Virus record (IMG/VR): IMGVR_UViG_3300027608_000011
Strand: one strand, 5' to 3'
Length of the DNA: 64,000 nt
Origin: a virus
Lineage: Duplodnaviria; Heunggongvirae; Uroviricota; Caudoviricetes
Part shown: piece by piece, positions 12,561 to 27,837 of the stretch
How the letters are laid out: the number at the start of each line of letters is the position of its first letter
How positions within the stretch are numbered: the first letter of the stretch is position 1
Position numbers and translations under genes: made by a program
The notes under the pieces: generated by a model
Told to the model about the DNA's origin: nothing
The model's input: the letters and a program-made list of their open reading frames with translations, nothing else
The model's database searches: none

Positions 12561-13428
12561 AATAAATTTTGAAAACGATTCGAACTATACTCCAATATTG
12601 GATCATGGATTTGTTGGTTTGGTAGATAGTATGGGTAGTGATAGTGCGGTAGTCCAAGCCGCTCGTGTTAGTTACGGTGCAGGAACTAAACAAGTTAACG
12701 ATGATAGAAATCTAATTCGTTATCTTATGCGTCATAAACACACAACTCCATTTGAGATGTGCGAAGTTAAGTTTCATTTAAAGATGCCTATTTTTGTTAT
12801 GAGACAATTGGTTCGACATCGTACTGCCAGTATCAATGAATACTCTGCACGTTATAGTGTAATGACTGACGAGTTTTATATTCCCGAGCTTGAGCAAATT
12901 CAAAAACAAAGTACAACTAACAAGCAAGGGCGAGAAGAATCAGAATGGTTCATTAATGACAAACGTGAAGTACAACATGCCTTCCAACGTAGCTTTCATA
13001 ATGCATACAAAGAATATACAAGTTTGTTAGGCGAGGAAGATAATGGACTTGCACGTGAGCTGGCTAGAAGTGTGCTTCCAGTAGGCGGATACACTGAGCT
13101 CTATTGGAAAGCAAATCTTAAAAACTTTTTGCACATGATTAAACTTCGCAGTGATCCTCATGCCCAGTGGGAGATACAAGAACTGGCAAATGCAATGTAT
13201 AACTTAGTTAAAGACAAGTTTCCTCAAGTGTGCGAGGCCTTTGAAGATTACGAACAAAATGCTGTCACCGCTAGTAGAATGGAAGTAGACTTGCTACAGG
13301 CACTGATTAGTAAAGATAAGTGGAATAATTTGTTAGAAGACCATCGTACGGAAGATGCAATTGCATTAAAGTTCAATATGGGTAAGAGAGAAATACGCGA
13401 GTTTATTGACAAATGGATCAAAGATTAA
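12544..13428 (+). CDS. thyX: Flavin-dependent thymidylate synthase
   Basis: AARVSY, HTTPFE, RHRTASINEYSARY ThyX motif, ELARSVLP, HAQWEI. Confidence 0.97.
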   Translation: MTLRSEINFENDSNYTPILDHGFVGLVDSMGSDSAVVQAARVSYGAGTKQVNDDRNLIRYLMRHKHTTPFEMCEVKFHLKMPIFVMRQLVRHRTASINEYSARYSVMTDEFYIPELEQIQKQSTTNKQGREESEWFINDKREVQHAFQRSFHNAYKEYTSLLGEEDNGLARELARSVLPVGGYTELYWKANLKNFLHMIKLRSDPHAQWEIQELANAMYNLVKDKFPQVCEAFEDYEQNAVTASRMEVDLLQALISKDKWNNLLEDHRTEDAIALKFNMGKREIREFIDKWIKD

Positions 13429-14030
13429 TTGTAACTGACTTATGTCGAAATCAGTCATTTTTATCGCTGTTCAACAAAACCTTAGTAGAAATACAAAAAG
13501 GTAACGACGAATTAAAAGATAATTATGCTAATCTAACTCCGGATGACTTTGCTAGCCTGACCTTTGCAGTTCGTAACGGTCAGGCTTTAGCTTTTAGCGG
13601 CATGGAAATTAGCGCAGAGAAGTGGGGAGCAAACTGTGCCAGGGTTAGTTCAAAATTTTATATACCGCCTGCATTCAGGCATACACATTTACAAAAATTT
13701 GAACCCAGCGACAAATATATTAATAGTACGTATCTTATTCCTAGACAAATAGCAGTAGCGCAAAGCCTGGGTATAGAATGTGTTTTTATAAGTCGAATTG
13801 ATAAACGTAGAAGCTTTGGTAAATTCATTGATTTAGTTAACGCTAACGGAGGATACAATTTTAAAATGTATCCTCATAAACTAGGTGTTTGCGGTCCACT
13901 GCCGCTGGGATATCGTCCAGCAGAATGTTGCCAATGGATTGCTACTATGCCGTTAAAAAAAGATGCTGATACTAAATTTTTAGAATATCTAGAAAACATA
14001 TCATGTGAGGATTGTAATGACTCCAACTAA
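13413..14030 (+). CDS. GNAT-like fold protein
   Basis: AFSG...ARV.SKFYIPPAFRH...QIAVAQSLGIECVFISR resembles GNAT topology. Confidence 0.55.
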   Translation: MDQRLIVTDLCRNQSFLSLFNKTLVEIQKGNDELKDNYANLTPDDFASLTFAVRNGQALAFSGMEISAEKWGANCARVSSKFYIPPAFRHTHLQKFEPSDKYINSTYLIPRQIAVAQSLGIECVFISRIDKRRSFGKFIDLVNANGGYNFKMYPHKLGVCGPLPLGYRPAECCQWIATMPLKKDADTKFLEYLENISCEDCNDSN

Positions 14031-14613
14031 AATAGCTATAACTGGCCATACCAAAGGTATAGGCAAAGAATTGTCCGATTATTACTCTGCACTAGGAATA
14101 GAAGTGCTGGGCTTTAGCAGGACTAACGGATACGATATTAGTAAAGCTGACGCTCAAGAACGTATCATTAATGAAAGTTTAGACTGTGACTTGTTTATAA
14201 ACAGTGCATATTTTAGATACAGTCAGATTGATTTATTACAACGCTGGTACGGACATCATTATAAAAAGCCCAATTTTATGATTGTTAATTTGAGTAGTCT
14301 AGCAGGTGATGCGTCGATGTTTTTAGGTAAAGTATATCCTTATGGATTACATAAGAAAGCACTAGACGATGTTAGTTATCAAATGAATTTATCTGCCGGC
14401 TGTAAGTGCAAAATTATAAATGTAAAACCAGGACATGTTAAAACAGACTTTTTGATGGATACCAATACGTATACGTTTGCACAACTACGACAACCGAGAA
14501 GCATCTTAGACTTAGAAAAACTAATTAAAGTCATTGCATTTACTATAGATATTTCAGATGAGAACAGTTACATAAGTAGTATAACATACAAAGGCGACAC
14601 TAGTACTATATGA
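14017..14613 (+). CDS. Short-chain dehydrogenase/reductase
   Basis: ITGHTKGIG, FINSA, VNLSS, catalytic YGLHK, PGHVKT. Confidence 0.9.
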   Translation: MTPTKIAITGHTKGIGKELSDYYSALGIEVLGFSRTNGYDISKADAQERIINESLDCDLFINSAYFRYSQIDLLQRWYGHHYKKPNFMIVNLSSLAGDASMFLGKVYPYGLHKKALDDVSYQMNLSAGCKCKIINVKPGHVKTDFLMDTNTYTFAQLRQPRSILDLEKLIKVIAFTIDISDENSYISSITYKGDTSTI

Positions 14614-15167
14614 CAACTGATGCGTTAGACGTCCGGAAATTGGATATTAAATATGATGCAGTCCGATTAAAACAAGAATTGGAATTATTGTATCGCCAAT
14701 ACCCATTCCATAAAGATGCTAATCAGATTGCATTAAGTCATAGTGGCAAATTTACCACTATAAAAGAACAAATGTACGATGGCGTGGGAAGTTTGTATGA
14801 TAGAGAAAACGGTGTTGCCAGCGACCTAGAGGAAAATTATACTGTTATCAGTGATTACGTTAAAGGCAGGTATTGGGAAGATGTAATCAAATCTGTACAG
14901 AATGTTAGTTCATTCCCGTTGGGAAGAATTAGATTAATGTTACTAAAACCCAAGACCTGTTATAGTTGGCACAGGGACAGCGATGAAATTAGATATCATA
15001 TCCCAATTGCTACTAATGCTAACTGTTTCATAGGAACAGAACAAGGGCTATATAGGATGGAAGAAGAAGGTAGATTGTATACTTTGATTAGTACTCAATA
15101 TCATACTGCATTGAATGCCAGTTTCAAACCCAGAGTTCATCTTGTGTTCTCTACATACACATCATGA
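14610..15167 (+). CDS. Aspartyl/asparaginyl beta-hydroxylase-like Fe/2OG oxygenase
   Basis: WHRD, RYHIPI.TN, HTALN, RVHLV. Confidence 0.85.
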   Translation: MTTDALDVRKLDIKYDAVRLKQELELLYRQYPFHKDANQIALSHSGKFTTIKEQMYDGVGSLYDRENGVASDLEENYTVISDYVKGRYWEDVIKSVQNVSSFPLGRIRLMLLKPKTCYSWHRDSDEIRYHIPIATNANCFIGTEQGLYRMEEEGRLYTLISTQYHTALNASFKPRVHLVFSTYTS

Positions 15168-15760
15168 TTTATTTTGACCACATTGCCAGTAATTTAAATA
15201 TCAAACCTGCATTTGAAGAATTGATGCGGAATTTAGATTTGTTTGCGCCACATACCAAATATAAAAAAATAGCGCCAGCATTAGAAGAAGTCGAAAGCAT
15301 ACACTTACGTATTCATCCGTCGGGCGATTATACTAGTAGGACCAACGACGAAATATGGGATGCCAAGGACTTAGCTGACCAAGCCGCTATATCAGTTATA
15401 GATAGTAACGCATATAGTAAATTACCTACTGCAAGAAAATTAATAGAACATGCAATGACATTGATTCCTGCAGGTGTTATGGGCAGGGCTTATATTTCTA
15501 GACTATCGCCGGGCGGCAAAATATATCCGCACGTTGATCCAGGAGCATACTTTCACATACACAACAGATATCATATTGTGTTAGATACTAATCCGCAAGT
15601 TGAATTTTTTACTGAAACGGAAAATATAAAGTGCAGGCCCGGCGAACTATGGCGATTTAATAATAGAGCCAAGCATTGGGGAGAAAACAAAGGCTCCACT
15701 GATAGGTATCATATTATATTTGACATTGCTCATCCGGAAAGATTTTATAACTATGATTAA
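15164..15760 (+). CDS. Aspartyl/asparaginyl beta-hydroxylase-like Fe/2OG oxygenase
   Basis: L.PGGKIYPHVD, RYHIVL, WRFNN..KHWGEN, DRYHIIFD. Confidence 0.9.
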   Translation: MIYFDHIASNLNIKPAFEELMRNLDLFAPHTKYKKIAPALEEVESIHLRIHPSGDYTSRTNDEIWDAKDLADQAAISVIDSNAYSKLPTARKLIEHAMTLIPAGVMGRAYISRLSPGGKIYPHVDPGAYFHIHNRYHIVLDTNPQVEFFTETENIKCRPGELWRFNNRAKHWGENKGSTDRYHIIFDIAHPERFYNYD

Positions 15761-16622
15761 TCATACACCAATCCTACCCACTATAGGCAGTACTGTTCAC
15801 GGAACATTTGATGAGTTAATGGCCTTGGATAACACTGAATTAAGGAAATTAATTTATAAAAGAAAAGCTCTGGTGTTTAAGAATATTAATGTAGATGCGG
15901 ATCGCATGGCTGAATTTAGTAAAAAGTTTGGTAGTCCGTGGACCAAAGATATGTATACTAAGCATACTAAAGAAAACTGTTTAGTTGCAAAAAATGATGT
16001 AGCATACACAATGTATGACGACAAAAGTTATCCCAGACTGTATAAAAGTTTAACTTGGCATTGTGATATTGCTAATGAAAAAGGATTAGAACCTTTCCCG
16101 TTCAGATTACTATATTGCTTAGAACTACCTAGTAAGATGACGGGCGGAAGCACTGATGTGGCTGACTTGGGTATTATACGTCGAGAATGGGATAGTAAAG
16201 ATCAGCACAATATTAACTTAGCTAATTTAGATTTCTTATATAATAGTTGGCAAAAGAATTTCACTAATCAGAAATGGTATCCTGCCTTAGACAAGCATCC
16301 ATGGACCGGAGAAGAGTTCGTTCGTTATAATGCATTCGGTACTGACAATGCATGGATATTGCGAACTAAGGTAACACATACTGATGGCAAGGAAGTATGG
16401 CTTGAAAACTCTTTTATGAGAGAGTTAAGCACTAGTCAAATCGAAGCTACACAATTTCTCGAACACACATGGAATGTGGGAGATGTGCTAGTATTCGACA
16501 ACTGGGCTACAATACACAGACGCGGAGATTTGGAGATTTTAGAAGATAGCGTTGGTCGACGAAGTTTTATTCGAATTAGTATCGACCATGAATTTGATAA
16601 GATGCCTCCATATAATAATTAA
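15753..16622 (+). CDS. TauD/TfdA-family Fe/2OG dioxygenase
   Basis: LVFKN, WHCD, GGST..AD, HPWTGE, HTW..GDVLVFDNWATIHRR. Confidence 0.9.
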   Translation: MINHTPILPTIGSTVHGTFDELMALDNTELRKLIYKRKALVFKNINVDADRMAEFSKKFGSPWTKDMYTKHTKENCLVAKNDVAYTMYDDKSYPRLYKSLTWHCDIANEKGLEPFPFRLLYCLELPSKMTGGSTDVADLGIIRREWDSKDQHNINLANLDFLYNSWQKNFTNQKWYPALDKHPWTGEEFVRYNAFGTDNAWILRTKVTHTDGKEVWLENSFMRELSTSQIEATQFLEHTWNVGDVLVFDNWATIHRRGDLEILEDSVGRRSFIRISIDHEFDKMPPYNN

Positions 16623-17554
16623 TGCAATACACACAGAATAACCATTTCCATTGGAGTTATGATGGTACTCCGTTTACTTTACGTACTAACCCTTATAGCA
16701 CATTTAAGATGCATTGGGGTAAGCCGTCTAGACCAGTTATGAACTTTAAAGATGAGTGCATTAAAGTATGTCAGATTTTAGCAGAAACATATCCCAATCA
16801 AAAATTTAATGTACTGTTTAGTGGAGGCATCGACAGCGAAATAGTAATGCAAAGTTTTATATGGGCTGGATTAAAGCGAAGAACAAAAGCAACCATAATC
16901 AGATTCACTGGTGGGTATAATGATCATGACATTGCGTATGCTATAGATTTTTGCAAGTATCATGCAATACCGTATGAGTTAATGGAACTTGATATTGTAG
17001 AATTTTTTAATAGCAAAGAATATATACCGTATGGAATGAAATATCAAAGTATACAATTGGCACAGATACAATGCATCTGGGCACTGGATCGTATACAAGA
17101 CGACATTCCTGTATTGGGCACCGGAGAAGTATTCTTCGAAAAGATTTTTAATTGGAACACCTGGATGGAAGATGTTCCTAGAAAACAATACGACTGGGTT
17201 TACTATGTAAGAGAAAACAATGACCTTAGTGTACCCAAGTACAGCATATTAAACAATCGTCCAGTTATCAGTGAGTTCTTTAGCTACACTCCTGAAATAA
17301 TGAAATCATACGTAAATGATCAAATTGTACAGGACTTATTAAGTAATAAACTAGACGGCAAGTTAAGTATTGCTAGTTCAAAGTTTCGAATCTATTATCA
17401 ATATTTTCTATTAAAATTTAGAAAAAAATATCACGGTTACGAAACATTAAAACTATTAAATTTACAAGCTCAACAAGAAATGTTAAACTATATACCTTAT
17501 AACGATCATAGATTTGAAATGTTAGCAACAGACTTTATTAAGAGCCTTTCATGA
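16622..17554 (+). CDS. PP-loop ATP pyrophosphatase (asparagine synthetase C-domain-like)
   Basis: VLFSGGIDSE motif, LGTGE, RKKYHGYE C-terminal motif; no glutaminase domain. Confidence 0.75.
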   Translation: MQYTQNNHFHWSYDGTPFTLRTNPYSTFKMHWGKPSRPVMNFKDECIKVCQILAETYPNQKFNVLFSGGIDSEIVMQSFIWAGLKRRTKATIIRFTGGYNDHDIAYAIDFCKYHAIPYELMELDIVEFFNSKEYIPYGMKYQSIQLAQIQCIWALDRIQDDIPVLGTGEVFFEKIFNWNTWMEDVPRKQYDWVYYVRENNDLSVPKYSILNNRPVISEFFSYTPEIMKSYVNDQIVQDLLSNKLDGKLSIASSKFRIYYQYFLLKFRKKYHGYETLKLLNLQAQQEMLNYIPYNDHRFEMLATDFIKSLS

Positions 17555-18165
17555 AAATTATTAAATTAGACCTAAGTTATTTTGACCAAATTGACGAAAT
17601 CCAACAGGACTACAATACGTTTGCGGGGGTAGATGTTACGGCAGTTCCTTTTTATAAACAAGATATGATGATGAGTAAGCACAACAATCTTGCTAACTTA
17701 TACTTAGGTAAAGATAATCCCCAATATATGATGTGGGGATATGTTGACGAAGACACAAATATATTGTATTCTGCAATGACACAGTATTTTAGCCCTGAGA
17801 CTAATATGTGGTATATTCAAAAAGCAATTAGTAGAAGAGCACACAAAGTTAAAAGTATAGGTAATAGAAACGGATTAGTTGAAATTATGCAACATGCTAT
17901 TGAATTTGCAGAAAAAAGAAACTGCTTTCAATATATTATGGCATACCCTAAACGCTATTATCTAGCACATAAACGTATATGGCCCAAGTATGTCGAACAA
18001 CGAAAAGAACGATACGACAGCGTAGTTATTAACGTTATTCCGCCCAATACAAGACCCCAATTTATAGATCAATGGATGTGGTTAATGAACAGTGCATTAT
18101 GGCCCACCGAACTAGTTGTAACTATGCAATATCTAAAGCCGGAATTTCGTCAAGAAATTAAATAA
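17551..18165 (+). CDS. GNAT-like protein, paralog of 22184-22849
   Basis: MWGY..., WYI, IMQHAIEFAE, VIPPNTRP motifs shared with the paralog. Confidence 0.55.
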   Translation: MKIIKLDLSYFDQIDEIQQDYNTFAGVDVTAVPFYKQDMMMSKHNNLANLYLGKDNPQYMMWGYVDEDTNILYSAMTQYFSPETNMWYIQKAISRRAHKVKSIGNRNGLVEIMQHAIEFAEKRNCFQYIMAYPKRYYLAHKRIWPKYVEQRKERYDSVVINVIPPNTRPQFIDQWMWLMNSALWPTELVVTMQYLKPEFRQEIK

Positions 18166-18176
18166 TAAATAGTAAT

Positions 18177-18944
18177 ATGAAAACGACCGGACATAGCATT
18201 AAATTATTTTGGCCTGTACATTTGGCCGCCCTAATAGGAACTATTTGTTTGTTCCTGTACGGGGACTTATCTTACCTGTGGCTATGGCCCGTGGGTTGGG
18301 TACTTATCAGCGGCCTTGGCAGTGCAATTGGCTTACATCGTGTTCTTAGTCATAAATGTATTCCAGAAATGAGTTCATTTACAAGAAAAGTACTTACATT
18401 GTTAGGCTGTATGGCTGGACAAGGTAGTCCTATTTTTTGGGTAGCATTACATAGAGGCTACCACCACAATCATGCAGACACATTACGAGACATCCACAGT
18501 CCTATCCATGGCAAATTTCACGCTTATCTGAGTTGGAGTTGGAAAATTACTCCCACTGATGTTAGCTTGAAATATGCAGTAGATTTGCTACGTGATAAAT
18601 TCCAAGTATGGGTACACACAAACTATTATAGAATAGTATGGGGTGTAATATTAGTAACTGCCTTAATCAACTGGCAAGTAGCCGTTGGGCTAATACTAAT
18701 CCCAATGATTACTGGAATACATCAAGAAGCTTGCGTCAATCTATTTTGCCATTGGAATGGTTTAGGTTATAGGAACCATGAAATCAAAGACAATAGTACA
18801 AATGTGCCACTGCTTGGTTATTTTGCGTGGGGTCAAGGATGGCATAACAATCATCACAAACACCCGGGCAATTTTAACTTTGGCGAAAAATGGTGGGAAT
18901 TTGATCCATGCATGATATTCTATCCTATACTTAAACGAATCTAA
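18177..18944 (+). CDS. Membrane fatty acid desaturase (delta-9/OLE1-DesC-like)
   Basis: His boxes HRVLSH, HRGYHHNH, HNNHH; DIHSP; WWEFDP; hydrophobic helices; TAAATA at 18166-18171. Confidence 0.93.
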   Translation: MKTTGHSIKLFWPVHLAALIGTICLFLYGDLSYLWLWPVGWVLISGLGSAIGLHRVLSHKCIPEMSSFTRKVLTLLGCMAGQGSPIFWVALHRGYHHNHADTLRDIHSPIHGKFHAYLSWSWKITPTDVSLKYAVDLLRDKFQVWVHTNYYRIVWGVILVTALINWQVAVGLILIPMITGIHQEACVNLFCHWNGLGYRNHEIKDNSTNVPLLGYFAWGQGWHNNHHKHPGNFNFGEKWWEFDPCMIFYPILKRI

Positions 18945-20491
18945 TGACCTCAGACATTGTAATTTTTACAGAATTTACCAGCACGACAGTATTCCAAAGA
19001 CTACTGGGCGCATATCGAATCGCCACCGAACTACGTAAAAATGGATATACTGTACAAGTAGTAGACTATTTTACTGAATGGAACTTGGACGAATTGAAAC
19101 TAATCGTCGATAAGTTTGTTGGACCAAATACATTATTTGTAGGATTCAGTAGTACACTGTACGCCATCAGAGACGAAGCACTTAGTGATAATAGTAGGCC
19201 CAATCATTATAGAAGAGAATTACGCTATACTGAGGACTTCCCGTTTAAACCAGAAGTAAGTCATGCATTTATTTCCCATATTAGAGAAGTAAACTCTAAC
19301 ACAAAAATAGTATTAGGTGGACAACGTAGTCAATACAAAAACAGTAAACTTGTTGATTGTTTCATTCACGGATACGCCGACCATACTACCGTTGAATATG
19401 CACATTTTTTAGCTGGCAAACCATATGATGCATCTGTACTTAAAATGGTTCCAATTAACGATAAACAAATAGAAGTAGATTGGATTAAAGATCCCGAATG
19501 GAATTTCCAGACTAGTCAAGTATTATGGCAACCTAATGATTTAATTTATGAAAACGAAGTGTTACCTATAGAGATTAGCAGGGGTTGTATTTTTAGATGC
19601 GACTTTTGTAGTTTTCCAATGAATGGTAAAACTAAATTAGATTACATCAAAGATCCAGGCCCATTAAGAGAAGAATTCATACGTAACTATGAGCAATGGG
19701 GTATTACTAATTATATTTTTGCGGATGATACATATAACGATAGCATCTATAAAGTAGAAAAACTTTACAATGAAGTGTTTTCTAAATTGCCATTTAAAAT
19801 ACAGTTTAGTGCTTATTTGAGACACGACTTAATATATCAGAATAGAGACATGGCTCCTCTTTTAAAAGAAAGTGGCTTGAAGACGTGTGTGTTTGGATTA
19901 GAGACTATGAATCACGATAGTGCAAAATCTATCGGTAAAGGTCTTCATCCAGAAAAAGGTAAAGAATTACTGCATTGGCTCAGGGACGATGAATGGGGCA
20001 AAGATATAACAATGAGTAGCGGATTTATTGTTGGGCTACCACATGAGACCGAGGAAACATTTAGAGAATGGATGAAGTGGGTTGAAGATCCGAATTGTCC
20101 ATTAGATGGTTATACAGTAGAGCCCTTGGGATTTAATATTAACGAAAAGAAAATATGGCCCAGCAAATTTGAAGCTGATCCCGAATCATATGGTTATACC
20201 ATTGTTAATAAAGGTGTTGCAAATAACAGTTTCTTTAAATGGAGTCTATGGACCAACAAGCATATGAGTCTGCCTAAGGCATGGGCGCTTGCTGACGAAT
20301 ATATTATGCGAGGATATCGCAGTGGCAGGATCAGGCCTGCTGGTTTTTTCCAATTCATGTGGATGAATGGTACTGGATTAACTGCCGATGATTTAGCAGG
20401 AATGAGTGTTAAAAATGTCAGTGCAACATTTCTTAAAGATAAGAAAGCTGAATGGTTTGACCAATACAAGACACGCCTTTTTAATTTATAA
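18944..20491 (+). CDS. B12-binding radical SAM enzyme
   Basis: N-terminal cobalamin-type domain (GAYRIATELR, VGFSST, IVLGG), SRGCIFRCDFC, DDTYND, GLET, FIVGLPHET. Confidence 0.9.
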   Translation: MTSDIVIFTEFTSTTVFQRLLGAYRIATELRKNGYTVQVVDYFTEWNLDELKLIVDKFVGPNTLFVGFSSTLYAIRDEALSDNSRPNHYRRELRYTEDFPFKPEVSHAFISHIREVNSNTKIVLGGQRSQYKNSKLVDCFIHGYADHTTVEYAHFLAGKPYDASVLKMVPINDKQIEVDWIKDPEWNFQTSQVLWQPNDLIYENEVLPIEISRGCIFRCDFCSFPMNGKTKLDYIKDPGPLREEFIRNYEQWGITNYIFADDTYNDSIYKVEKLYNEVFSKLPFKIQFSAYLRHDLIYQNRDMAPLLKESGLKTCVFGLETMNHDSAKSIGKGLHPEKGKELLHWLRDDEWGKDITMSSGFIVGLPHETEETFREWMKWVEDPNCPLDGYTVEPLGFNINEKKIWPSKFEADPESYGYTIVNKGVANNSFFKWSLWTNKHMSLPKAWALADEYIMRGYRSGRIRPAGFFQFMWMNGTGLTADDLAGMSVKNVSATFLKDKKAEWFDQYKTRLFNL

Positions 20492-20502
20492 GAGAGACAG
20501 AT

Positions 20503-21120
20503 ATGTGGATGCACATTTTAACTACAAGCCTAAATAGGGTATTGTTACACGCCCCCGAGAAGAAACATTTATATTTTATTAATGAATGCTTTTTTGATAC
20601 TCACGTTTATACTGGACAATTAGATAACAGTTTAGAACCTCAGTTCAGGTCTACTCCAACTGATTTTATACTGCAAGGATCTAACATTGTTTTTAGTCCT
20701 GTACCAAATGATGATATTTCCAATCTAAGAAAATTTGCTGAATATAAGCAAATGTGCTATTATGATTTATTAACTAAAATAGGATTAGCTAGAGTCAAGG
20801 AACAAGACAAAGTAACTGGACAGGCTGAAATTTATAAAATGAAATATGATCAAGCATTGTTACTACAACAAAACAATTATGATCCTACAAACATTAATGC
20901 TCCGCTAGTAGTTGATTATGCAGAACTAGACAACTGCACTATTAAACAAAGTGCGGATCAAATTATTTTACAATATACAATGCACCAAGAGTCTCTACAG
21001 AAAACAGAATGGTTTAGAATAAAATATTTAAGGCTAATTAAGCAATCACAAACTGCCGAAGAATTAAAACAAATTGCAAAAGATTTGCATAAAGAAACCT
21101 TTTTAAACATACTCTTATGA
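20503..21120 (+). CDS. Hypothetical protein; helical C-terminus resembles tail-fibre-associated proteins
   Basis: GQAEIYKMKYDQA...PLVVDYAE...TEWFRIKY...IKQSQTAEEL pattern. Confidence 0.5.
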   Translation: MWMHILTTSLNRVLLHAPEKKHLYFINECFFDTHVYTGQLDNSLEPQFRSTPTDFILQGSNIVFSPVPNDDISNLRKFAEYKQMCYYDLLTKIGLARVKEQDKVTGQAEIYKMKYDQALLLQQNNYDPTNINAPLVVDYAELDNCTIKQSADQIILQYTMHQESLQKTEWFRIKYLRLIKQSQTAEELKQIAKDLHKETFLNILL

Positions 21121-22190
21121 AATCACTATTATATTATAATCAATTAGATGTATATAAACCTGAATGGTGTAAAGATGTGCCTGCATTGAAGACCTATAGT
21201 GTGTTTAGTAAAGCATTTAATAGTGGTATTAGTTTAGTTGATAGAACTGGTACTATAAAACTACCGTTCAATGTAGTTAACAGACATCCCATGCCTACTA
21301 AACAAGATATGTCATTAACATTTGAAGAACTATGTTATCAGACATGGGATAAAATAGAACAACATATTAAGCAAACAATGTTGCGTCCTGTTATTATGTA
21401 TAGCGGCGGCATTGACAGTACATTAATAGTTTCATTAATGCATACCTATGCAAGTCCTGAGTTTAAAGAACGACTATTAATTATATTAAACACTAATAGT
21501 ATACAAGAAAATCCAATATTTTACGAAAATATAATTAAACGCAACTATACTATGGCTAGTAGTAATTCATTTGAAAATTATTTTAATGAGTTTAACTATA
21601 TAATTACCGGCGAGTTTGCTGATAACGTATTTGGCAGTTTGACATTAAAATCTAGCATAGACTTTTTTGGCACAGAAAGCATTATTCAAAACAATTACAA
21701 AGTATTTGCTTATGATTTCTTCAATCATAAAATTCAAAATGAAACCGAGACTAAATTCTTCTTAGATCAAATGGAGCAGTTAATTGCTACTTGTCCATGG
21801 AAAATTAAAAGTTGGAGCGACTACTTATGGTATCAAAATTTTGCAATGAAATGGCAAGCAGTTGAATTTAGAATATTGAGTCATAAAAATGCAGACTTAA
21901 CAATTAACGATGATTATATCTCTAAACATATTTGTCATTTTTGGCAAAGTCAGGAATGGCAACAATGGGCCCTAAACAATCCTGAAGATAAAATACAAAA
22001 CAAATGGACTAGTTATAAACTTCCTGCAAAAGAGCTAATCTTTAAACTGACTGGCGACCGGGAATATTTCATACGTAAGACTAAATTTCCTAGCTTGCCC
22101 GGCGTGTTTAGATACAGACGTGTAAGTAATTTCATAACAGACAAATTCGAGTTTGTAAGTGATATAGATATTAAGGAATACCTATGTTAA
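21117..22190 (+). CDS. PP-loop ATP pyrophosphatase (asparagine synthetase C-domain-like)
   Basis: IMYSGGIDST, ITGEFADNVFG (asparagine synthetase GEGAD-like), YKLPAK..I, K.K.PSL; no glutaminase domain. Confidence 0.8.
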   Translation: MKSLLYYNQLDVYKPEWCKDVPALKTYSVFSKAFNSGISLVDRTGTIKLPFNVVNRHPMPTKQDMSLTFEELCYQTWDKIEQHIKQTMLRPVIMYSGGIDSTLIVSLMHTYASPEFKERLLIILNTNSIQENPIFYENIIKRNYTMASSNSFENYFNEFNYIITGEFADNVFGSLTLKSSIDFFGTESIIQNNYKVFAYDFFNHKIQNETETKFFLDQMEQLIATCPWKIKSWSDYLWYQNFAMKWQAVEFRILSHKNADLTINDDYISKHICHFWQSQEWQQWALNNPEDKIQNKWTSYKLPAKELIFKLTGDREYFIRKTKFPSLPGVFRYRRVSNFITDKFEFVSDIDIKEYLC

Positions 22191-22235
22191 CAAACACCGC
22201 AACAAGAATACCTATGTTAACAAACACCGCAACAA
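22176..22235 (+). repeat. Perfect 30-bp tandem duplication spanning a gene junction
   Basis: GAATACCTATGTTAACAAACACCGCAACAA at 22176-22205 and 22206-22235. Confidence 0.97.
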
Positions 22236-22849
22236 AACTAAATGATAGCCATATGGATCAAGTACTCGAAGTATATGAAACACAGACATCTAATATTAGA
22301 GTCAAGCTAACTAAAAACTTAGATATATACTTTAGGAAAGCATTTGAAACTGCCAGTTTAAATAAACTAGGTCATAGTTTATGGGGGCATTTTGACGACA
22401 ATAATACATTAACTATGTTTGCAACAAAGACTAATTGGACTAGTATGCCGTTTTATACCGTGGGCAATGTATTCGCACACAAAGATCGCGGGCATGTTTT
22501 AACCCATGACGGACTAGATGTTATTGGCAGATTTTTACGAGACATCTTTTATGCCGGTATCCAAGAAGAACGATTTACAGCGTTTATGGCTAGAGATTAC
22601 AGAAATGTAATTGCTACTAATAAAGGCATACGTAAACTGCCTACTACTACTCGAAGCGATTTATATTCCCAATCATTGTTAGAAATTGTGCCTCCTTACA
22701 GTAGGGCCAAATACGAATACGGTAGTAACATACTAGGAATACTGGAAGGCAGAAATCCGCATCCTGTTATTATTCGTAGTTTAACCGTTAAATCTAGTGA
22801 AAATACTATAGTTAATACACATTTGGACGCAGAGTTCATTATAAACTAA
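22184..22849 (+). CDS. GNAT-like protein, paralog of 17551-18165
   Basis: KLNDSHMDQV, LWGHFDD, EIVPPYSRA motifs align by eye with the 17551 protein. Confidence 0.55.
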   Translation: MLTNTATRIPMLTNTATKLNDSHMDQVLEVYETQTSNIRVKLTKNLDIYFRKAFETASLNKLGHSLWGHFDDNNTLTMFATKTNWTSMPFYTVGNVFAHKDRGHVLTHDGLDVIGRFLRDIFYAGIQEERFTAFMARDYRNVIATNKGIRKLPTTTRSDLYSQSLLEIVPPYSRAKYEYGSNILGILEGRNPHPVIIRSLTVKSSENTIVNTHLDAEFIIN

Positions 22850-22873
22850 ATATATGCAATACGGAGATATACT

Positions 22874-23182
22874 ATGAGTATAAAAATTATTACTATTTTA
22901 AAGCGTCCATCACCTGAGGTTGAGTTTTTCTTTGCCCAGTATCGAGAGCACGACGTTATGAAGTCAATGAGAAATAATGCAATGGAACACGATGGCTTTC
23001 TTGGTTCTGCTATGGAAATAACTGACGATAAACTTACTTGTACAGTAACCTTAGAATTCACTGACGATAATCAATTGAGAACATTTGTCAATGAAAATGA
23101 AGAGTTCATGATTCAACGTGGTATCTTAATGGACGAATGGTGTCAGAATCCTGGATGTACGTTTGACGTATATATCGGTTAA
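22874..23182 (+). CDS. Small protein, possible dimeric alpha-beta barrel
   Basis: RBS GGAG, TAAATA at 22847-22852; HDGFLGS...TVTLEFTD pattern. Confidence 0.6.
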   Translation: MSIKIITILKRPSPEVEFFFAQYREHDVMKSMRNNAMEHDGFLGSAMEITDDKLTCTVTLEFTDDNQLRTFVNENEEFMIQRGILMDEWCQNPGCTFDVYIG

Positions 23183-23979
23183 CGCTTTTCACCGATAATC
23201 ATATATCTGGACCATTTATTAAATGAGATGCATCCAGAATATTTGATATCAACTCTAGACTCGACCATTTCTTCAAACTGTTTTAGATCACTTACACAAT
23301 TTATGTGATCCGGCATTTCAAACATATTATTATTCTGTAATACCAATCGCTTACCGGTTGGTATCATGTCTAGCCAACGATAGATATTAGGGATATGTTC
23401 ACATATCGTATTGATTATAGTATCTGCGTTACTATAATCTATATCGTAGATATCCTTGTTAATTGCAGTATACTTGATATCTCTGTTTAATATTTCGCCG
23501 GCCTTATTAGCAGTATCGTCAATATCAAAGCTAGTTATATTACTAGTAGAAGAATTATGGTCAAATATTATTCGTCCTATAGTGCCAATCCACCCGCCAC
23601 AGAGATATAATTCTCCAACGTTATATTCTTTTAATTGTACAGCCGCCCATACTTTACTTTGTATTTGAAATCTACTAAGTCCGTCTTTCCAGTTAACTGT
23701 ACTATACGTGTTCATTGCTATCTTAAGATTATCCAAGAATCTAGGCAGTACACACTGAGTTAGCAACAGTAGTTCTATTAATGTTTCTACATCATCTGTT
23801 AATCGATCAAGTCCGGCACTTGTTTTATTTCTAAGAAAATTCGGCACGGTGTCTAGAACTTTATATTGATGTTGTTTACCTGGGTTATGTGCGTAGTCGT
23901 ATATTGCTCTAAATATCTTAGGATGAGTTTGAACCAACACCCATTCATCTAGTCCGTATAGTAAATCTTTAGTTTTCAT
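23179..23979 (-). CDS. Class I SAM-dependent methyltransferase-like protein
   Basis: QIQSKVW, LCGGWIG (motif I), SFDID (motif II), IINTICEH, LQNNN, RYMIIG. Confidence 0.8.
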   Translation of the reverse strand: MKTKDLLYGLDEWVLVQTHPKIFRAIYDYAHNPGKQHQYKVLDTVPNFLRNKTSAGLDRLTDDVETLIELLLLTQCVLPRFLDNLKIAMNTYSTVNWKDGLSRFQIQSKVWAAVQLKEYNVGELYLCGGWIGTIGRIIFDHNSSTSNITSFDIDDTANKAGEILNRDIKYTAINKDIYDIDYSNADTIINTICEHIPNIYRWLDMIPTGKRLVLQNNNMFEMPDHINCVSDLKQFEEMVESRVDIKYSGCISFNKWSRYMIIGEKR

Positions 23980-24097
23980 TTTTAATTTTTATTAGTGTGC
24001 CGCTGACTTCTTGTCTAGGTTTAGGAAAGTATGTCCAATTATGATACAATATTGCAAACATGCAAACGTACACAATAATTTCAACTTTAGTTTTCAT
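23969..24097 (-). CDS. Unannotated 42-aa membrane peptide
   Basis: MKTKVEIIVYVCMFAILYHNWTYFPKPRQEVSGTLIKIKNEN; ATG overlaps the upstream TGA and the stop overlaps the downstream start, filling the gap exactly. Confidence 0.65.
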   Translation of the reverse strand: MKTKVEIIVYVCMFAILYHNWTYFPKPRQEVSGTLIKIKNEN

Positions 24098-26178
24098 TTG
24101 TTTGCAGAATGTGTAATCCACTGCTCATGTAGCCAATCAAAATCGTTTATTAGATTTATATCGTTCGTATTTTGCCTGACCCAGTCTCTTCCAGCTTGTG
24201 CGCCACTAACAGTCCAGTCGCCGTTTTCAACTCCAAGGTTAACAGAACACCAAACTTCTAAACGCTTGTCGGTTTCTTCATCAACTTGATTTTTAATTAA
24301 TTTACTAGATAATTTAGCGGCTTCTCTAAATCCACTTCGCCATGCTGTTTCGGGATCACTGTTAAATTCAGTTGTGCCTATTGTTCTAGGAATTACTGTG
24401 AACTTGGCTCCTATACTAGTAGCTAAGTCTATATTCCATTTAGTTGCGTTTCTCAATAATTCTGTTGGAAATAATTTGACGCCGCCGAAGCCATAACTTA
24501 ATCCATTGACTACATTCTTTACATGCCATACGTATACCACATCTCTATCATGTAACTTGGGATAATTGTCGAATGTAAATCTACCATCTACCACACAATC
24601 TGCATCTACTAGAAAGAACATATTGCTGGATACTACATTGGCGGCGGCTTTATGTGCTTCTAATAAACCTTTTACTCCGTTTATTCTATGTAGCTTGGTC
24701 TTGTTGTGTATTAGCTTATCTAATTTTTTATAATTTTCATCGGCATATGGTTCGTTATTACTTAAAAATACAATATCAAATTCTTCTTCTATACATCCAT
24801 GATCCCATACTTTAACTGCTGTCTTTTGTAATCTGGGCGTTAGTTCTGTTCCGAGCGGAACAAGATAGCATCCAGCCCAGTCGGTTACTCGACCACTCTT
24901 TGGATTTGTCATCATAAACACATGCACTTTATCTTCGTTACCACGGGCTGGCATATATTTTTGATTCCACTTAACGCCTGGACTACAGAATTTATCAAAG
25001 TGCCAATATAGTTTAGTATCTCCTGGGCCCATACTCCAATTATACATATAAGGGCGTATATACCCATGCTCTTTATATTCGGGAGGATTGTCTATAAAAG
25101 ATATCTTAACACCATATCTTTTATCGGTGCCTTCACAATACCATACATGTAAAAACTGTAGTGAATCATAGCTAGGTATAAAACTATCAGTTACCACCGA
25201 CCAGTTGTACAATTGAAAATCTGGATTTATAATTATTTTAGGAACTAGATTTAATTTGACTTGCCCCATATCAATGTCGCCGCGGCAGTCTGCACTTGGA
25301 GTTAATCTAATTGCCCATATTCTTTCTCCGGGGGGTGTATAACTAGAATCTAAATACCAAGTATGTGTTAGCTTCATTGAATCAGCCAATGGCCTGTAGT
25401 CAAAATCAAAATTTTCAAATTTGATATTATCAAATAATGGATTAACCTCCCATGTCATGTCTTTATAAAACTCCTCGGGTATTGCATTTATAGTTCCTTG
25501 CAATACTGATCCGATAAAATTGTTCGGTTCCAATTTGTATGCCCATACATCATAGTTTGGCAAATTGATATCACCAGTTAAATTCCAAACATGACAATAA
25601 TTACCTTGACTGTAATGTAATGTTGCTTGGGGTATGTCTGTGTATAGGCTAGCAGGCAAGGCTGTATTTGTGACTAAATTAAACTGATTTTTTACATTAT
25701 TGTGTACAATTTTAATGCCTTCTGAGTCAGGAACATAAGAAATTCTTACGGCCTCGACAACTTCACCGTCAGTAGTACTGGTATCAAAATGCCAAACATG
25801 GTCATATTTTAAATCATATGTTGGAGGCAATAACGTTAGCATTTCATCTGTCTTGCCGTTATAATAAGGACTACACGATATGGATCTTCGTGGACGCACG
25901 GGGTATTGTATATATGAATCATTCCAGCCCGCCGGTATTAATTTTACTAACCAAAAACTTCTATCTTCCCAGACCCATAAATGCAAATGGCGTTTTTCAT
26001 ATGATACTGGAATAAATTTCCAATCAAAGTTTTCAAATACTTCTGTGTCTTTTATTTCGGCATTAACAAACCATGTCGTTAGGCCATCGGCCATTTTATA
26101 TAACTCTTTGTCAGTATATGGCTTATCAACTAATATTACTTGAAACGTTGTATTCTGTTGTAATTCTATTAAATTCAT
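24094..26178 (-). CDS. Glycosyltransferase (GT-A) with N-terminal HxW repeats
   Basis: C-terminal FDIVFLS.NEP, LVDADC (DxD), YGFGGVKL, AWRSGFRE; six repeats upstream. Confidence 0.75.
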   Translation of the reverse strand: MNLIELQQNTTFQVILVDKPYTDKELYKMADGLTTWFVNAEIKDTEVFENFDWKFIPVSYEKRHLHLWVWEDRSFWLVKLIPAGWNDSYIQYPVRPRRSISCSPYYNGKTDEMLTLLPPTYDLKYDHVWHFDTSTTDGEVVEAVRISYVPDSEGIKIVHNNVKNQFNLVTNTALPASLYTDIPQATLHYSQGNYCHVWNLTGDINLPNYDVWAYKLEPNNFIGSVLQGTINAIPEEFYKDMTWEVNPLFDNIKFENFDFDYRPLADSMKLTHTWYLDSSYTPPGERIWAIRLTPSADCRGDIDMGQVKLNLVPKIIINPDFQLYNWSVVTDSFIPSYDSLQFLHVWYCEGTDKRYGVKISFIDNPPEYKEHGYIRPYMYNWSMGPGDTKLYWHFDKFCSPGVKWNQKYMPARGNEDKVHVFMMTNPKSGRVTDWAGCYLVPLGTELTPRLQKTAVKVWDHGCIEEEFDIVFLSNNEPYADENYKKLDKLIHNKTKLHRINGVKGLLEAHKAAANVVSSNMFFLVDADCVVDGRFTFDNYPKLHDRDVVYVWHVKNVVNGLSYGFGGVKLFPTELLRNATKWNIDLATSIGAKFTVIPRTIGTTEFNSDPETAWRSGFREAAKLSSKLIKNQVDEETDKRLEVWCSVNLGVENGDWTVSGAQAGRDWVRQNTNDINLINDFDWLHEQWITHSANK

Positions 26179-26854
26179 TGTTTATCCAATCGAAGTCATT
26201 GATTAATTTTAATGCTGGTAAGTTGTTTTTATTCTTTAATCCGTATTCTTTGCCTGCTAATGCTCCGCCATACGAATAGAACCCGTACGGCACATTATTG
26301 TTTAATTGACACCATGCATCGAGTCTTTCTAAAGTTATACTATCATCACTAATTATACCACTGGCCAACTTTGTACATTCTCTAAATGCACTACGCCACG
26401 TACTAAACGGATCTGTATTAAATGCAGTTACGTTTGATATTTCGTTTTTGCTTACAAATTCGGCTCCCATACTAGTTGCTAAGTCTACTTTCCATTCGGA
26501 TATAGATAGCAATAAATCCTTGCGATACAATTTTACGCCGCCATAACCATATATTAGATTATTAATGGGATTAATACTATTCCAACAAAATACACATTCA
26601 TTGGATGGAATTCTGCCATATATTAATTCAGTTGGGGTCGGGGTATAATCAAAATTAAAAGTTTCTACTATTTGTGCATCTGCATCTACAATGTAAAAAT
26701 TATTAGTCATACTTTTTCGGGCCGCGGCCTGATGTGCTAGTAATAAACCTTTTACTCCGCTAACTCTCTTTGCATGTGGTGCATACGTTAATAGTAATTT
26801 AAAGTTGTCGTCTGCATATGGTTCTTGGTATGACAGGAATATAACATCAAGCAT
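26126..26854 (-). CDS. Glycosyltransferase (GT-A, GT2-like)
   Basis: DVIFLSYQEP, IVDADA, YGYGGVKL, WRSAFRE. Confidence 0.8.
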   Translation of the reverse strand: MLDVIFLSYQEPYADDNFKLLLTYAPHAKRVSGVKGLLLAHQAAARKSMTNNFYIVDADAQIVETFNFDYTPTPTELIYGRIPSNECVFCWNSINPINNLIYGYGGVKLYRKDLLLSISEWKVDLATSMGAEFVSKNEISNVTAFNTDPFSTWRSAFRECTKLASGIISDDSITLERLDAWCQLNNNVPYGFYSYGGALAGKEYGLKNKNNLPALKLINDFDWINNEFNRITTEYNVSSNIS

Positions 26855-27837
26855 TATTCATTCTCGCTACCGACACCTTTAAGTACTTGGTCTTCTTTAA
26901 TCATTGGCCCTAGTCTATTAGGATTAACGTAAGTAGCTTTGAAGAACTTACTGCCCCACTCTCCCAATTCTGCAAGTTCTAAATTTAGTTCTTGGCGCAG
27001 TGCCATTCCTAAATTAATTGTTTCTTTCTTTAACTTAGTTGTATCCCATATATAATTGCTCTTATGGCATTGTTTATCGTTGCCAGCAAATTGCGGTGCA
27101 ACAATAGAATTCCAATAGTTGTCATGCCATTCGAAATCTCTGACATTTACAAAATCAAACTCATCTCGTTTCATGTTAGTTAAGTAACATCCTAAACGTG
27201 TGCCGTACATGGCCCATTCGCCATTTAATACATCTTCGCCTACACTACACCATACCAATAATCTTTGATAATTTTTATAATGTATGTGTTCTCTAAACTT
27301 TTTAGGATTAATAGGAACTCCTCGCTGTAGTCCTAGTTTAACCCCTTCTCTAAAACCTGCCCTATAGGCTTGATAAGGAGTAGCATTGTTCATTACATCA
27401 CTGTATACATTATTCATTTGAATGTAATTAATGTTCCAACAAAAATCTACTTGAGCTTCAGCAGTATCAGAATCCTCATGACTTTTCATTTGTTCCACTA
27501 CATGCTTTGGCCAACACTTAATACCGCCATTGCCATATACTAATCCATTTACAACATTTTTGCCAGCCCAGCTTATTACATCATTTTGGCCAATTTTATT
27601 TAAATCAAGTTGTATGTTTAGAAAGTCTTCTCGTACGATATTATCAGCATCAATGGTAATAAATCTATCTGTGCTAGATAGTGCCGCGGCGGCCTTATGG
27701 CAAGCATCACTACCTTTGACCCCGTGACTTCGTTGTGCCCATGGTATTTTTGTTAGTAGGTCTGCATAATTTTCATCAGCGTTTGGTTCATCGTAACTCA
27801 TGAACACAACATCAAATTCTGTTATAGGTGTCATCAT
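26854..27837 (-). CDS. Glycosyltransferase (GT-A, GT2-like)
   Basis: DVVFMSYDEP, TIDADN, YGNGGIK, AYRAGFREG. Confidence 0.8.
   Translation of the reverse strand: MMTPITEFDVVFMSYDEPNADENYADLLTKIPWAQRSHGVKGSDACHKAAAALSSTDRFITIDADNIVREDFLNIQLDLNKIGQNDVISWAGKNVVNGLVYGNGGIKCWPKHVVEQMKSHEDSDTAEAQVDFCWNINYIQMNNVYSDVMNNATPYQAYRAGFREGVKLGLQRGVPINPKKFREHIHYKNYQRLLVWCSVGEDVLNGEWAMYGTRLGCYLTNMKRDEFDFVNVRDFEWHDNYWNSIVAPQFAGNDKQCHKSNYIWDTTKLKKETINLGMALRQELNLELAELGEWGSKFFKATYVNPNRLGPMIKEDQVLKGVGSENE

Follow-up and report, generated by a model that had tools for sequence, protein, structure and literature searches.

Two separate PP-loop enzyme families and distantly related, predicted GNAT-fold partners in a conserved operon of a T4-like phage

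We analyzed a 64,000-nt stretch of viral DNA (IMG/VR record IMGVR_UViG_3300027608_000011, Caudoviricetes; the whole stretch is called the window below) and focus on 13 tightly packed genes that form a plus-strand operon at 13413-23182, in which two genes for PP-loop proteins are each followed by a gene for a predicted GNAT-fold protein. We call the PP-loop proteins PPA and PPB, and the proteins encoded behind them partner A and partner B. By gene content the window derives from an uncultured T4-like myovirus, with a gp5-type baseplate hub with lysozyme, an ATP-dependent DNA ligase, an RNase H-type 5'-3' exonuclease, a gp47-like phosphoesterase and a CobS/CobT-like AAA+/VWA pair. The synteny of the 13 genes is kept in all close relatives. 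The features of the operon are as follows (aa, amino acids; AF2, AlphaFold2; the basis of each assignment in brackets):

13413-16622, plus strand: genes 1 to 5, in order an unknown gene of 205 aa, a short SDR, two Asp/Arg-hydroxylase-like cupins and a TauD-family dioxygenase (Pfam, PHROG)
16622-17554, plus strand: gene 6, PPA, a PP-loop (SGGIDS) protein of the ATP-pyrophosphatase type, 310 aa, unnamed family (motif, family profile)
17551-18165, plus strand: gene 7, partner A, predicted GNAT-fold protein, 204 aa, with a 4-nt overlap with PPA (AF2, Foldseek, intermediate sequences)
18177-18944, plus strand: gene 8, membrane protein resembling di-iron fatty-acid desaturases, 255 aa (Pfam FA_desaturase 2.1e-12; NCBIfam DesA family 6e-16)
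18944-20491, plus strand: gene 9, B12-binding radical SAM enzyme, 515 aa (Pfam Radical_SAM 3.7e-15)
20503-21120, plus strand: gene 10, unknown protein of 205 aa, family c3/c20, the usual upstream companion of PPB (linkage)
21117-22190, plus strand: gene 11, PPB, a PP-loop (SGGIDS) protein of 357 aa, second unnamed family (motif, G-E-x-x-D-x-x-F-G AsnB-like signature)
22180-22239, plus strand: 30-bp tandem duplication over the PPB stop and the partner B start (read directly in the sequence)
22184-22849, plus strand: gene 12, partner B, predicted GNAT-fold protein, 221 aa (from ATG 22184) or 211 aa (from ATG 22214) (AF2, profile)

The operon closes with gene 13, an unknown gene of 102 aa. A sequence-only reading of this region had seen in it a duplicated two-gene module, namely a dedicated amide or isopeptide ligase pair, made of an asparagine-synthetase-type adenylating enzyme and a GNAT-like partner, that is used twice with different specificity. 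The paired layout on which this was built is real: the start of partner A overlaps the PPA stop as ATGA at 17551-17554, and the partner B start, ATG 22184, overlaps the PPB stop, TAA 22188-22190, so that each PP-loop gene runs into a downstream gene of about 205-220 aa.

Both PP-loop proteins carry the expected SGGIDS motif, at residues 67-72 of PPA (SGGIDSE, 67-73) and 96-101 of PPB. The motif is invariant in the alignments of both families, and the invariant residues of the PPB family are Y95, S96, G97, G98, D100, S101, E166 and D169. Members of the PPA family were found at 32 or more viral loci and in the genomes of 18 bacterial species, and members of the PPB family at 125 or more viral loci. 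Judged by motif and profile, PPA and PPB are credible members of the PP-loop ATP pyrophosphatase superfamily and hence candidate adenylating enzymes, and neither has a glutaminase domain, in agreement with the sequence-only reading. No curated Pfam or NCBIfam threshold is reached by either family, and their sub-threshold matches scatter over Asn_synthase, QueC, ATP_bind_3, NAD_synthase and Arginosuc_synth. Against Pfam PF00733 the PPB of the window scores 14.1 bits, below the cut-off of 21, and matches to this model at E<=0.01 were obtained for 2 of 40 PPB members and 2 of 21 PPA members. Profile searches against solved structures gave NadE (4e-4) and a tRNA thiolase (0.014) for PPA, in the PP-loop region only, and LarE (0.004) and AsnB for PPB, at the nucleotide-binding loop only; the PP-loop segment was also matched in TilS and ArgG. 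These structure matches end after about 35 residues (PPB) to about 90 residues (PPA).

PPB holds one further trace of asparagine synthetase, a family with a second signature, (S/T)GEGxDE(L/V)FGG, downstream of the PP-loop. Its profile places 'vvtGElnDqLFgs' on 'VLSGEGSDEVFGG' of E. coli AsnB, collinear with the PP-loop, in a weak match (E ~0.002, single-sequence search) in which the spacing from the PP-loop to this second motif differs between the two proteins (about 72 residues in PPB against about 116 in AsnB); the same comparison with AsnB gave no such match for PPA. The label 'asparagine-synthetase-type' thus survives at best as a motif-level lead for PPB alone.

The two PP-loop proteins themselves have little in common. 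Aligned directly, they match over 44 residues around SGGIDS, and across comparisons the alignment stays confined to 44-52 residues at SGGxDS. A comparison of family profiles by hhalign (21 PPA and 40 PPB non-redundant members) spans 48 columns, with a probability of 96% and E 2.4e-9. By sequence, PPA and PPB are therefore two separate, widespread, unnamed families that are related at the nucleotide-binding loop only. Additional short or degenerate PPA-like paralogues stand after PPB or a partner gene elsewhere (L029:9001-9819, L019:3220-4068, L034:7080-8090; L numbers denote loci of our survey), and some of them, such as the 282-aa protein of L019, are without the SGGxDS motif.

The partner proteins tell a different story, being true but very distant homologues. 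BLASTP compares partner A with partner B at E 5.4, and hhalign at E 0.011, or 0.0031 with a more diverse partner B profile, in a collinear alignment of 192 columns and low probability. The four motif pairs that had first suggested a relationship fall in register in both the BLASTP and the hhalign alignments, although the overall resemblance is far weaker than these motifs imply. An exhaustive profile search with partner B gathered 68 representative relatives of 170-240 aa, among them sequences that bridge the two proteins: P0023 (1.7e-9 with the partner B profile, library-wide; 1.8e-8 with the partner A hidden Markov model, HMM), P0036 (8.8e-8; 2.7e-10) and P0047 (4.4e-6; 2.8e-11). The partner A HMM also matches P0069 at 5e-13; its E-values apply to a set of 78 sequences only. 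We regard partners A and B as homologous because they are joined through these intermediates and because both AF2 models have the same fold.

The models of both partners follow the secondary-structure order beta-alpha-alpha-beta3-alpha-beta-alpha-beta-beta, that is, the beta1-alpha1-alpha2-beta2-beta3-beta4-alpha3-beta5-alpha4-beta6-beta7 of the GNAT fold. The partner B model has a pLDDT (predicted local distance difference test) of 71 and a pTM (predicted template-modeling score) of 0.72. At E<=1e-3, Foldseek returned 331 GNAT matches for partner B and 208 for partner A; all matches were GNAT acetyltransferases, and the top entries overlap. VIA-align superposed partner B on GNAT 3g8w with Z 14.5 and a root-mean-square deviation of 2.9 A over 152 residues, and Atlas TM-scores were 0.57-0.60 by model and 0.70-0.81 by the matched GNAT clusters. 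Independently of the models, the profile of the 29-member partner family matches 3g8w at E 4.1e-5 by sequence alone. The assignment of both partners as GNAT-like proteins is thereby confirmed at the level of predicted structure and profile. The phage partners match none of the Pfam GNAT families, and one family member weakly matches Autoind_synth, the LuxI-type, acyl-ACP-using family (ACP, acyl carrier protein), at 2.7e-4.

At the partner B start, the copies of the tandem repeat (22180-22209 and 22210-22239) agree at 29 of 30 positions, and this duplication accounts for the second in-frame ATG at 22214 and the doubled 'MLTNTAT'. The close relatives hold a single repeat copy and have partner B proteins of 211 aa, the length obtained from the second start.

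We then asked how the genes are arranged elsewhere, calling open reading frames in 134 viral or metagenomic loci, searching them with family HMMs and counting linkage per non-redundant lineage (20 for PPA, 39 for PPB). In 15 of 20 lineages PPA has a partner-family gene no more than 5 kb away, and in nine of them the two are direct neighbors (partner downstream in seven, upstream in two). The arrangement varies from a single downstream partner through two or three partners in tandem some 1 kb upstream to a double-domain partner of about 390 aa directly upstream, and the partner copy number ranges from 1 to 3. The same 5-kb range around PPA includes a desaturase-like gene in 13 of 20 lineages. 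The ~390-aa proteins were considered as possible PP-loop fusions and rejected as such, their second domain being weakly partner-like. An index of 5.8 billion proteins contained no fused partner form of 420 aa or more, which is weak evidence.

PPB keeps other company. A c3/c20 gene stands directly upstream of it in 31 of 39 lineages (83 of 105 genes), a cupin (Cupin_2) directly downstream in 11 of 39, and this module is seen in L074-L134. A partner follows PPB directly in 1 of 39 lineages, that of the window, where partner B sits in the place usually taken by the cupin. The sister lineage (L029, L049, L064, L076) has a third, short PPA-like PP-loop protein in the slot after PPB. In the L001/L018 lineage, a 251-aa gene with an H-x-D motif (L001/L002:14659-15414) separates PPB from a divergent partner B. 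This gene was tried as a partner paralogue and rejected, being unrelated to the partners; it may encode another oxygenase. The c3/c20 family has no relative in Pfam or in the partner family (hhalign E 0.37), and its search against the PDB returned a designed repeat protein only.

These distributions decide against one ligase pair that was duplicated, with copies differing in specificity, which we consider unlikely. Such an origin would fit the view from the window, in which each PP-loop gene precedes one of two homologous GNAT-fold genes and its stop codon overlaps the start codon of that gene, an arrangement kept within the window's own lineage. The duplicated-module reading fails because PPA and PPB share the PP-loop segment only and because the PPB-partner adjacency is lineage-specific; moreover, PPA and PPB are old, separately distributed families, and other genes occupy or interrupt the position after PPB in a sister lineage and in the L001 lineage. 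PPB belongs to a separate module, with the c3/c20 protein upstream and often a cupin downstream, and the symmetry of the two pairs is a lineage-specific arrangement of two different modules. Conservation of the pairing beyond this phage was borne out for PPA but not for PPB.

Bacterial genomes provided further evidence for a link between PPA and the GNAT fold. A survey of one genome per species (185,579 species) yielded 18 loci with PPA-family genes (L137-L154; contigs up to 418 kb), of which Bdellovibrionota account for 16, and Archangium and Thermoanaerobaculia for one each. The genes near the bacterial PPA, often present as two or three paralogues, include desaturase-like, Asp/Arg-hydroxylase-like, B12-binding radical SAM and c6 genes, and the Pfam assignments among 90 neighbor genes were Asp_Arg_Hydrox (9), Acetyltransf_7 (6), Acetyltransf_1 (5), FA_desaturase (5), Radical_SAM (3), FA_hydroxylase (2) and PAP2 (2). 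Four bacterial proteins fuse a PPA domain to a GNAT-like domain, in two opposite orders (L143:7332-8945; L145:1802-4195; L148:2616-5126; L149:9023-11500). The Archangium fusion (537 aa) has the GNAT-like domain at its N terminus and the PPA domain at 222-525 (E 7e-107); three Bdellovibrionota fusions (797-836 aa) have the PPA domain first and the GNAT-like domain at the C terminus. Each fused GNAT-like domain contains a motif-A-like stretch (QGKG/QGKGYH or RGRGYA). In the fusions of about 800 aa, some 340 residues of the middle region are without assignment. A family of about 205 aa that overlaps PPA in Bdellovibrionales matched the partner profile at E 0.015 over 60 columns only, and PaiA in the PDB weakly at 0.15.

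Phage neighborhoods, bacterial neighborhoods and gene fusions all support a link between a PPA-type enzyme and a GNAT-fold domain. We read PPA with its GNAT-fold partner, usually accompanied by a desaturase-like gene, as a widespread, undescribed functional unit that phages have in common with predatory bacteria. Whether the two proteins would touch is a separate matter: a complex prediction of PPA with partner A, with a family alignment for each, scored 0.27 against a mark of 0.32, which speaks neither for nor against binding.

Taken as a whole, the region appears to be part of one conserved multi-enzyme tailoring operon with two different PP-loop enzymes, rather than a duplicated ligase pair, a reading to which we give a probability of roughly one half. 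PP-loop superfamily chemistry, in which a carbonyl or carboxylate is adenylated for attack by nitrogen, is established. In the proposed pathway, the PP-loop enzymes would spend ATP on adenylating a carboxylate or carbonyl group of the substrate, and a nitrogen nucleophile would attack the adenylated group to give an amide or amidine, sulfur transfer being conceivable as well. We infer from this logic that the enzymes could perform amide or isopeptide ligation. PPA would work with its GNAT-fold partner, a member of a large, very divergent, unnamed family, and the GNAT-fold proteins would either act as acyl or aminoacyl transferases on an amine or bind the acceptor that carries this amine. The desaturase-like enzyme, the 2-oxoglutarate/iron oxygenases, the SDR and the B12-binding radical SAM enzyme may tailor the same molecule.

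That molecule is most likely lipid-like or bound to the cell envelope. We favor this class of substrate because of the integral-membrane desaturase, the bacterial neighbors (FA_hydroxylase, PAP2 and hydroxylases of the LpxO/OlsC type) and the lipid and hopanoid affinities of the radical SAM enzyme, which matched the PhpK-type, lipid B12-binding radical SAM and HpnJ families of NCBIfam at 1e-14 to 1e-17, all far below the cut-offs.

Several results weigh against the tailoring operon as we picture it. The window contains no ACP and no acyl-activating or scaffold-forming enzyme that we could find. Enzymes of the PF05118 and TauD types also act on peptides and small molecules, and the lipid assignment therefore rests mainly on the desaturase-like gene and the bacterial neighbors. 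Since the likeness of both PP-loop proteins to characterized enzymes is limited to the loop and no curated threshold is reached, thiolation, amidation, nitrile formation and other PP-loop chemistry are equally allowed. The partner A model, though of GNAT topology, is of low confidence (pLDDT 60). Against Pfam Acetyltransf_1, the GNAT-like domains of the bacterial fusions score 16.8-20.5 bits, just under its cut-off of 20.7, and their membership in the phage partner family was not detectable. Finally, motif A (Q/R-x-x-G-x-G/A), which binds the CoA pyrophosphate, is not conserved in the alignment of 29 diverse partner members, in which a single Gly alone is near-invariant, so that the partner may lack acyl-CoA transferase activity, or enzymatic activity of any kind.

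This last point feeds an alternative in which the partners keep the fold, have lost acyl transfer and serve as substrate-presenting or regulatory subunits of the PP-loop enzymes. The variable copy number and the double-domain form are what one would expect of specificity adaptors. GNATs are notoriously poorly conserved in sequence and nevertheless active, however, the motif-A-like stretches of the bacterial fusions are typical of active GNATs, and the weak LuxI-type match of one family member also argues against lost catalysis. We hold non-catalytic partners to be improbable.

A nucleic-acid substrate would assign the PP-loop enzymes to a tRNA or DNA base, as for TilS, QueC, MnmA and TtuA, and the GNAT-fold proteins to the addition of an acyl or aminoacyl group, as for TmcA and Mu Mom. 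Family members give marginal matches to QueC, tRNA_Me_trans, ATP_bind_3 and a tRNA thiolase structure, a ThyX or ThyA gene is near the cluster in several arrangements, and in Pseudomonas phage Cygsa01 a distant PPB relative annotated as MnmA adjoins a tRNA gene. Mom of phage Mu is reported to be a GNAT-fold enzyme able to modify DNA from aminoacyl (charged) tRNA (PMC13219725; bioRxiv 10.1101/2023.03.24.534169), and phage proteins with this fold therefore need not use acetyl-CoA. Yet the most constant companion of PPA and its partner is the integral-membrane desaturase-like gene (13 of 20 lineages), the bacterial neighbors include FA_hydroxylase and PAP2, and the QueC and tRNA matches are all sub-threshold and confined to the PP-loop. 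Moreover, we identified none of the hallmark DNA hypermodification genes (list of PMC8989533) among the 13 genes of the operon. We rate base modification as an unlikely function.

Modification of a peptide or protein would give the same enzymes another set of roles: isopeptide or side-chain amidation by an AsnB-like enzyme, with Asp/Asn hydroxylases, a B12-binding radical SAM C-methyltransferase and GNATs tailoring a peptide, in the manner of ribosomally synthesized and post-translationally modified peptides (RiPPs), or a virion protein. The two AsnB-type motifs of PPB fit this view, as does the position of the cluster, which borders tail and glycosyltransferase-like genes, and peptidyl residues are known targets of hydroxylation by PF05118 and TauD enzymes. 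The radical SAM protein also matches RiPP C-methyltransferase models, but weakly (TIGR03975 at 1.7e-6) and far below the cut-offs. Against it, we identified no precursor peptide, leader peptidase or RRE-type (RiPP recognition element) protein in the operon, and we know of no role for a desaturase-like membrane enzyme in peptide maturation. We judge a peptide or protein substrate to be quite unlikely.

Beyond the operon, two families are encoded on the minus strand at 23179-27837, c6 by a gene of 266 aa and c5 by three domains, paralogous to one another, in genes of 694, 242 and 327 aa; none has a Pfam match. Both families accompany PP-loop clusters in many phage loci, and c6 also occurs in the Bdellovibrio locus L147. 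No tRNA gene was found in the whole window, and a scan for promoters and terminators gave no more sites than shuffled sequence.

Deposited genomes contain little of this system. A DNA search with the region and tblastn searches with PPA, PPB and partner A returned nothing from 50,697 phage records; with more central family members, the same records yielded only gp44 of Ralstonia phage RsoM2USA and two weak 'MnmA' genes of Cygsa01. RsoM2USA is a cultured jumbo phage, and its gp44 (L136, 35281-36216) is a PPA-family member (E 1e-20) that could serve as an experimental handle. Neither of its unannotated neighbors, gp43 (206 aa, the gene after gp44 and overlapping it) and gp45 (359 aa), could be detected as a member of the partner or PPB families.

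The PPA, PPB, GNAT-fold partner and c3 families are without a Pfam, PHROG or NCBIfam model and are present in more than 100 uncultured phage contigs, while being almost absent from the deposited phage genomes. Outside phages, the PPA type is almost confined to predatory bacteria, the Bdellovibrionota of our survey. Phages and these predators both take over another cell, and their common enzyme set, with a membrane desaturase and lipid-type neighbors, therefore suggests a deliberate chemical change of the envelope of the victim or the attacker. If so, phage auxiliary metabolism would gain a new class, and these genes would be a source of new amide-forming enzymes. Our most specific proposal, which is tentative and more doubtful than the operon reading itself, is that PPA-type enzymes and GNAT-fold proteins form an undescribed two-component, sometimes fused, system for amide formation or acyl transfer in hundreds of aquatic phages and in predatory Bdellovibrionota; together with the membrane desaturase and oxygenases, it would make or remodel a lipid or envelope component with an amide linkage in the cell under infection or attack. 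Fusions and conserved linkage make PPA with partner A a concrete, testable pair.

The known systems closest to the PP-loop proteins include the C-terminal domain of AsnB and its glutaminase-less relatives (beta-lactam synthetase and lasso-peptide cyclases). Common to both sides is the SGGxDS PP-loop; PPB adds a collinear signature (G-E-x-x-D-x-x-F-G) that weakly matches 'SGEGSDEVFGG' of AsnB, and nitrogen attack on an adenylated carboxylate would be the likely logic. There are also differences: the Asn_synthase Pfam cut-off is not reached, the two motifs are spaced differently, PPA shares the PP-loop only, and no similarity to AsnB could be detected in the remainder of either protein. The other PP-loop ATP pyrophosphatases (NadE, LarE, QueC, TilS and the TtuA/MnmA thiolases) resemble PPA and PPB in the nucleotide-binding loop, whereas their substrate-binding parts are unrelated, and their chemistry is therefore not transferable. 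The partners have the full predicted topology of GNAT acetyltransferases (closest solved structure 3g8w of S. epidermidis; RimI, SpeG and PaiA types), but are about 40-60 residues longer and differ in the missing motif A and Pfam match noted above.

At the level of pathways, the tailoring of aminolipids and lipid A offers an analogy, not a homology. Such tailoring employs an OlsB-type N-acyltransferase, PF05118 hydroxylases (OlsC, LpxO) and an OlsE-type hydroxylase, and LuxI-type or N-acyl amino acid synthases are GNAT-fold users of acyl-ACP. As in these pathways, our loci bring together a predicted GNAT-fold transferase, PF05118 hydroxylases and membrane di-iron lipid enzymes, to which the bacterial loci add FA_hydroxylase and PAP2. 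Unlike them, the window has no OlsA or OlsB homologue and no detected ACP; a motif-level search for the phosphopantetheine site in small acidic open reading frames found none in the window or in any of the loci. PP-loop enzymes are, to our knowledge, not part of described aminolipid pathways.

Our literature search found no published description of a phage module of PP-loop and GNAT genes, nor of hypermodification by an Asn-synthetase-like enzyme with a GNAT, in line with the sequence-only reading, which recognized no described system in the pairing. The nearest genomic setting is the hypervariable 'host recognition cluster' of T4-like pelagi- and cyanomyophages, with its glycosyltransferases, radical SAM cassettes and Asp/Asn beta-hydroxylase (PMC7029224). 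The window resembles it as a variable island beside the tail genes of a large T4-like aquatic phage. It differs in its PP-loop and GNAT genes, which that description does not mention, and in that the present module forms a core that is conserved inside variable regions of this kind.

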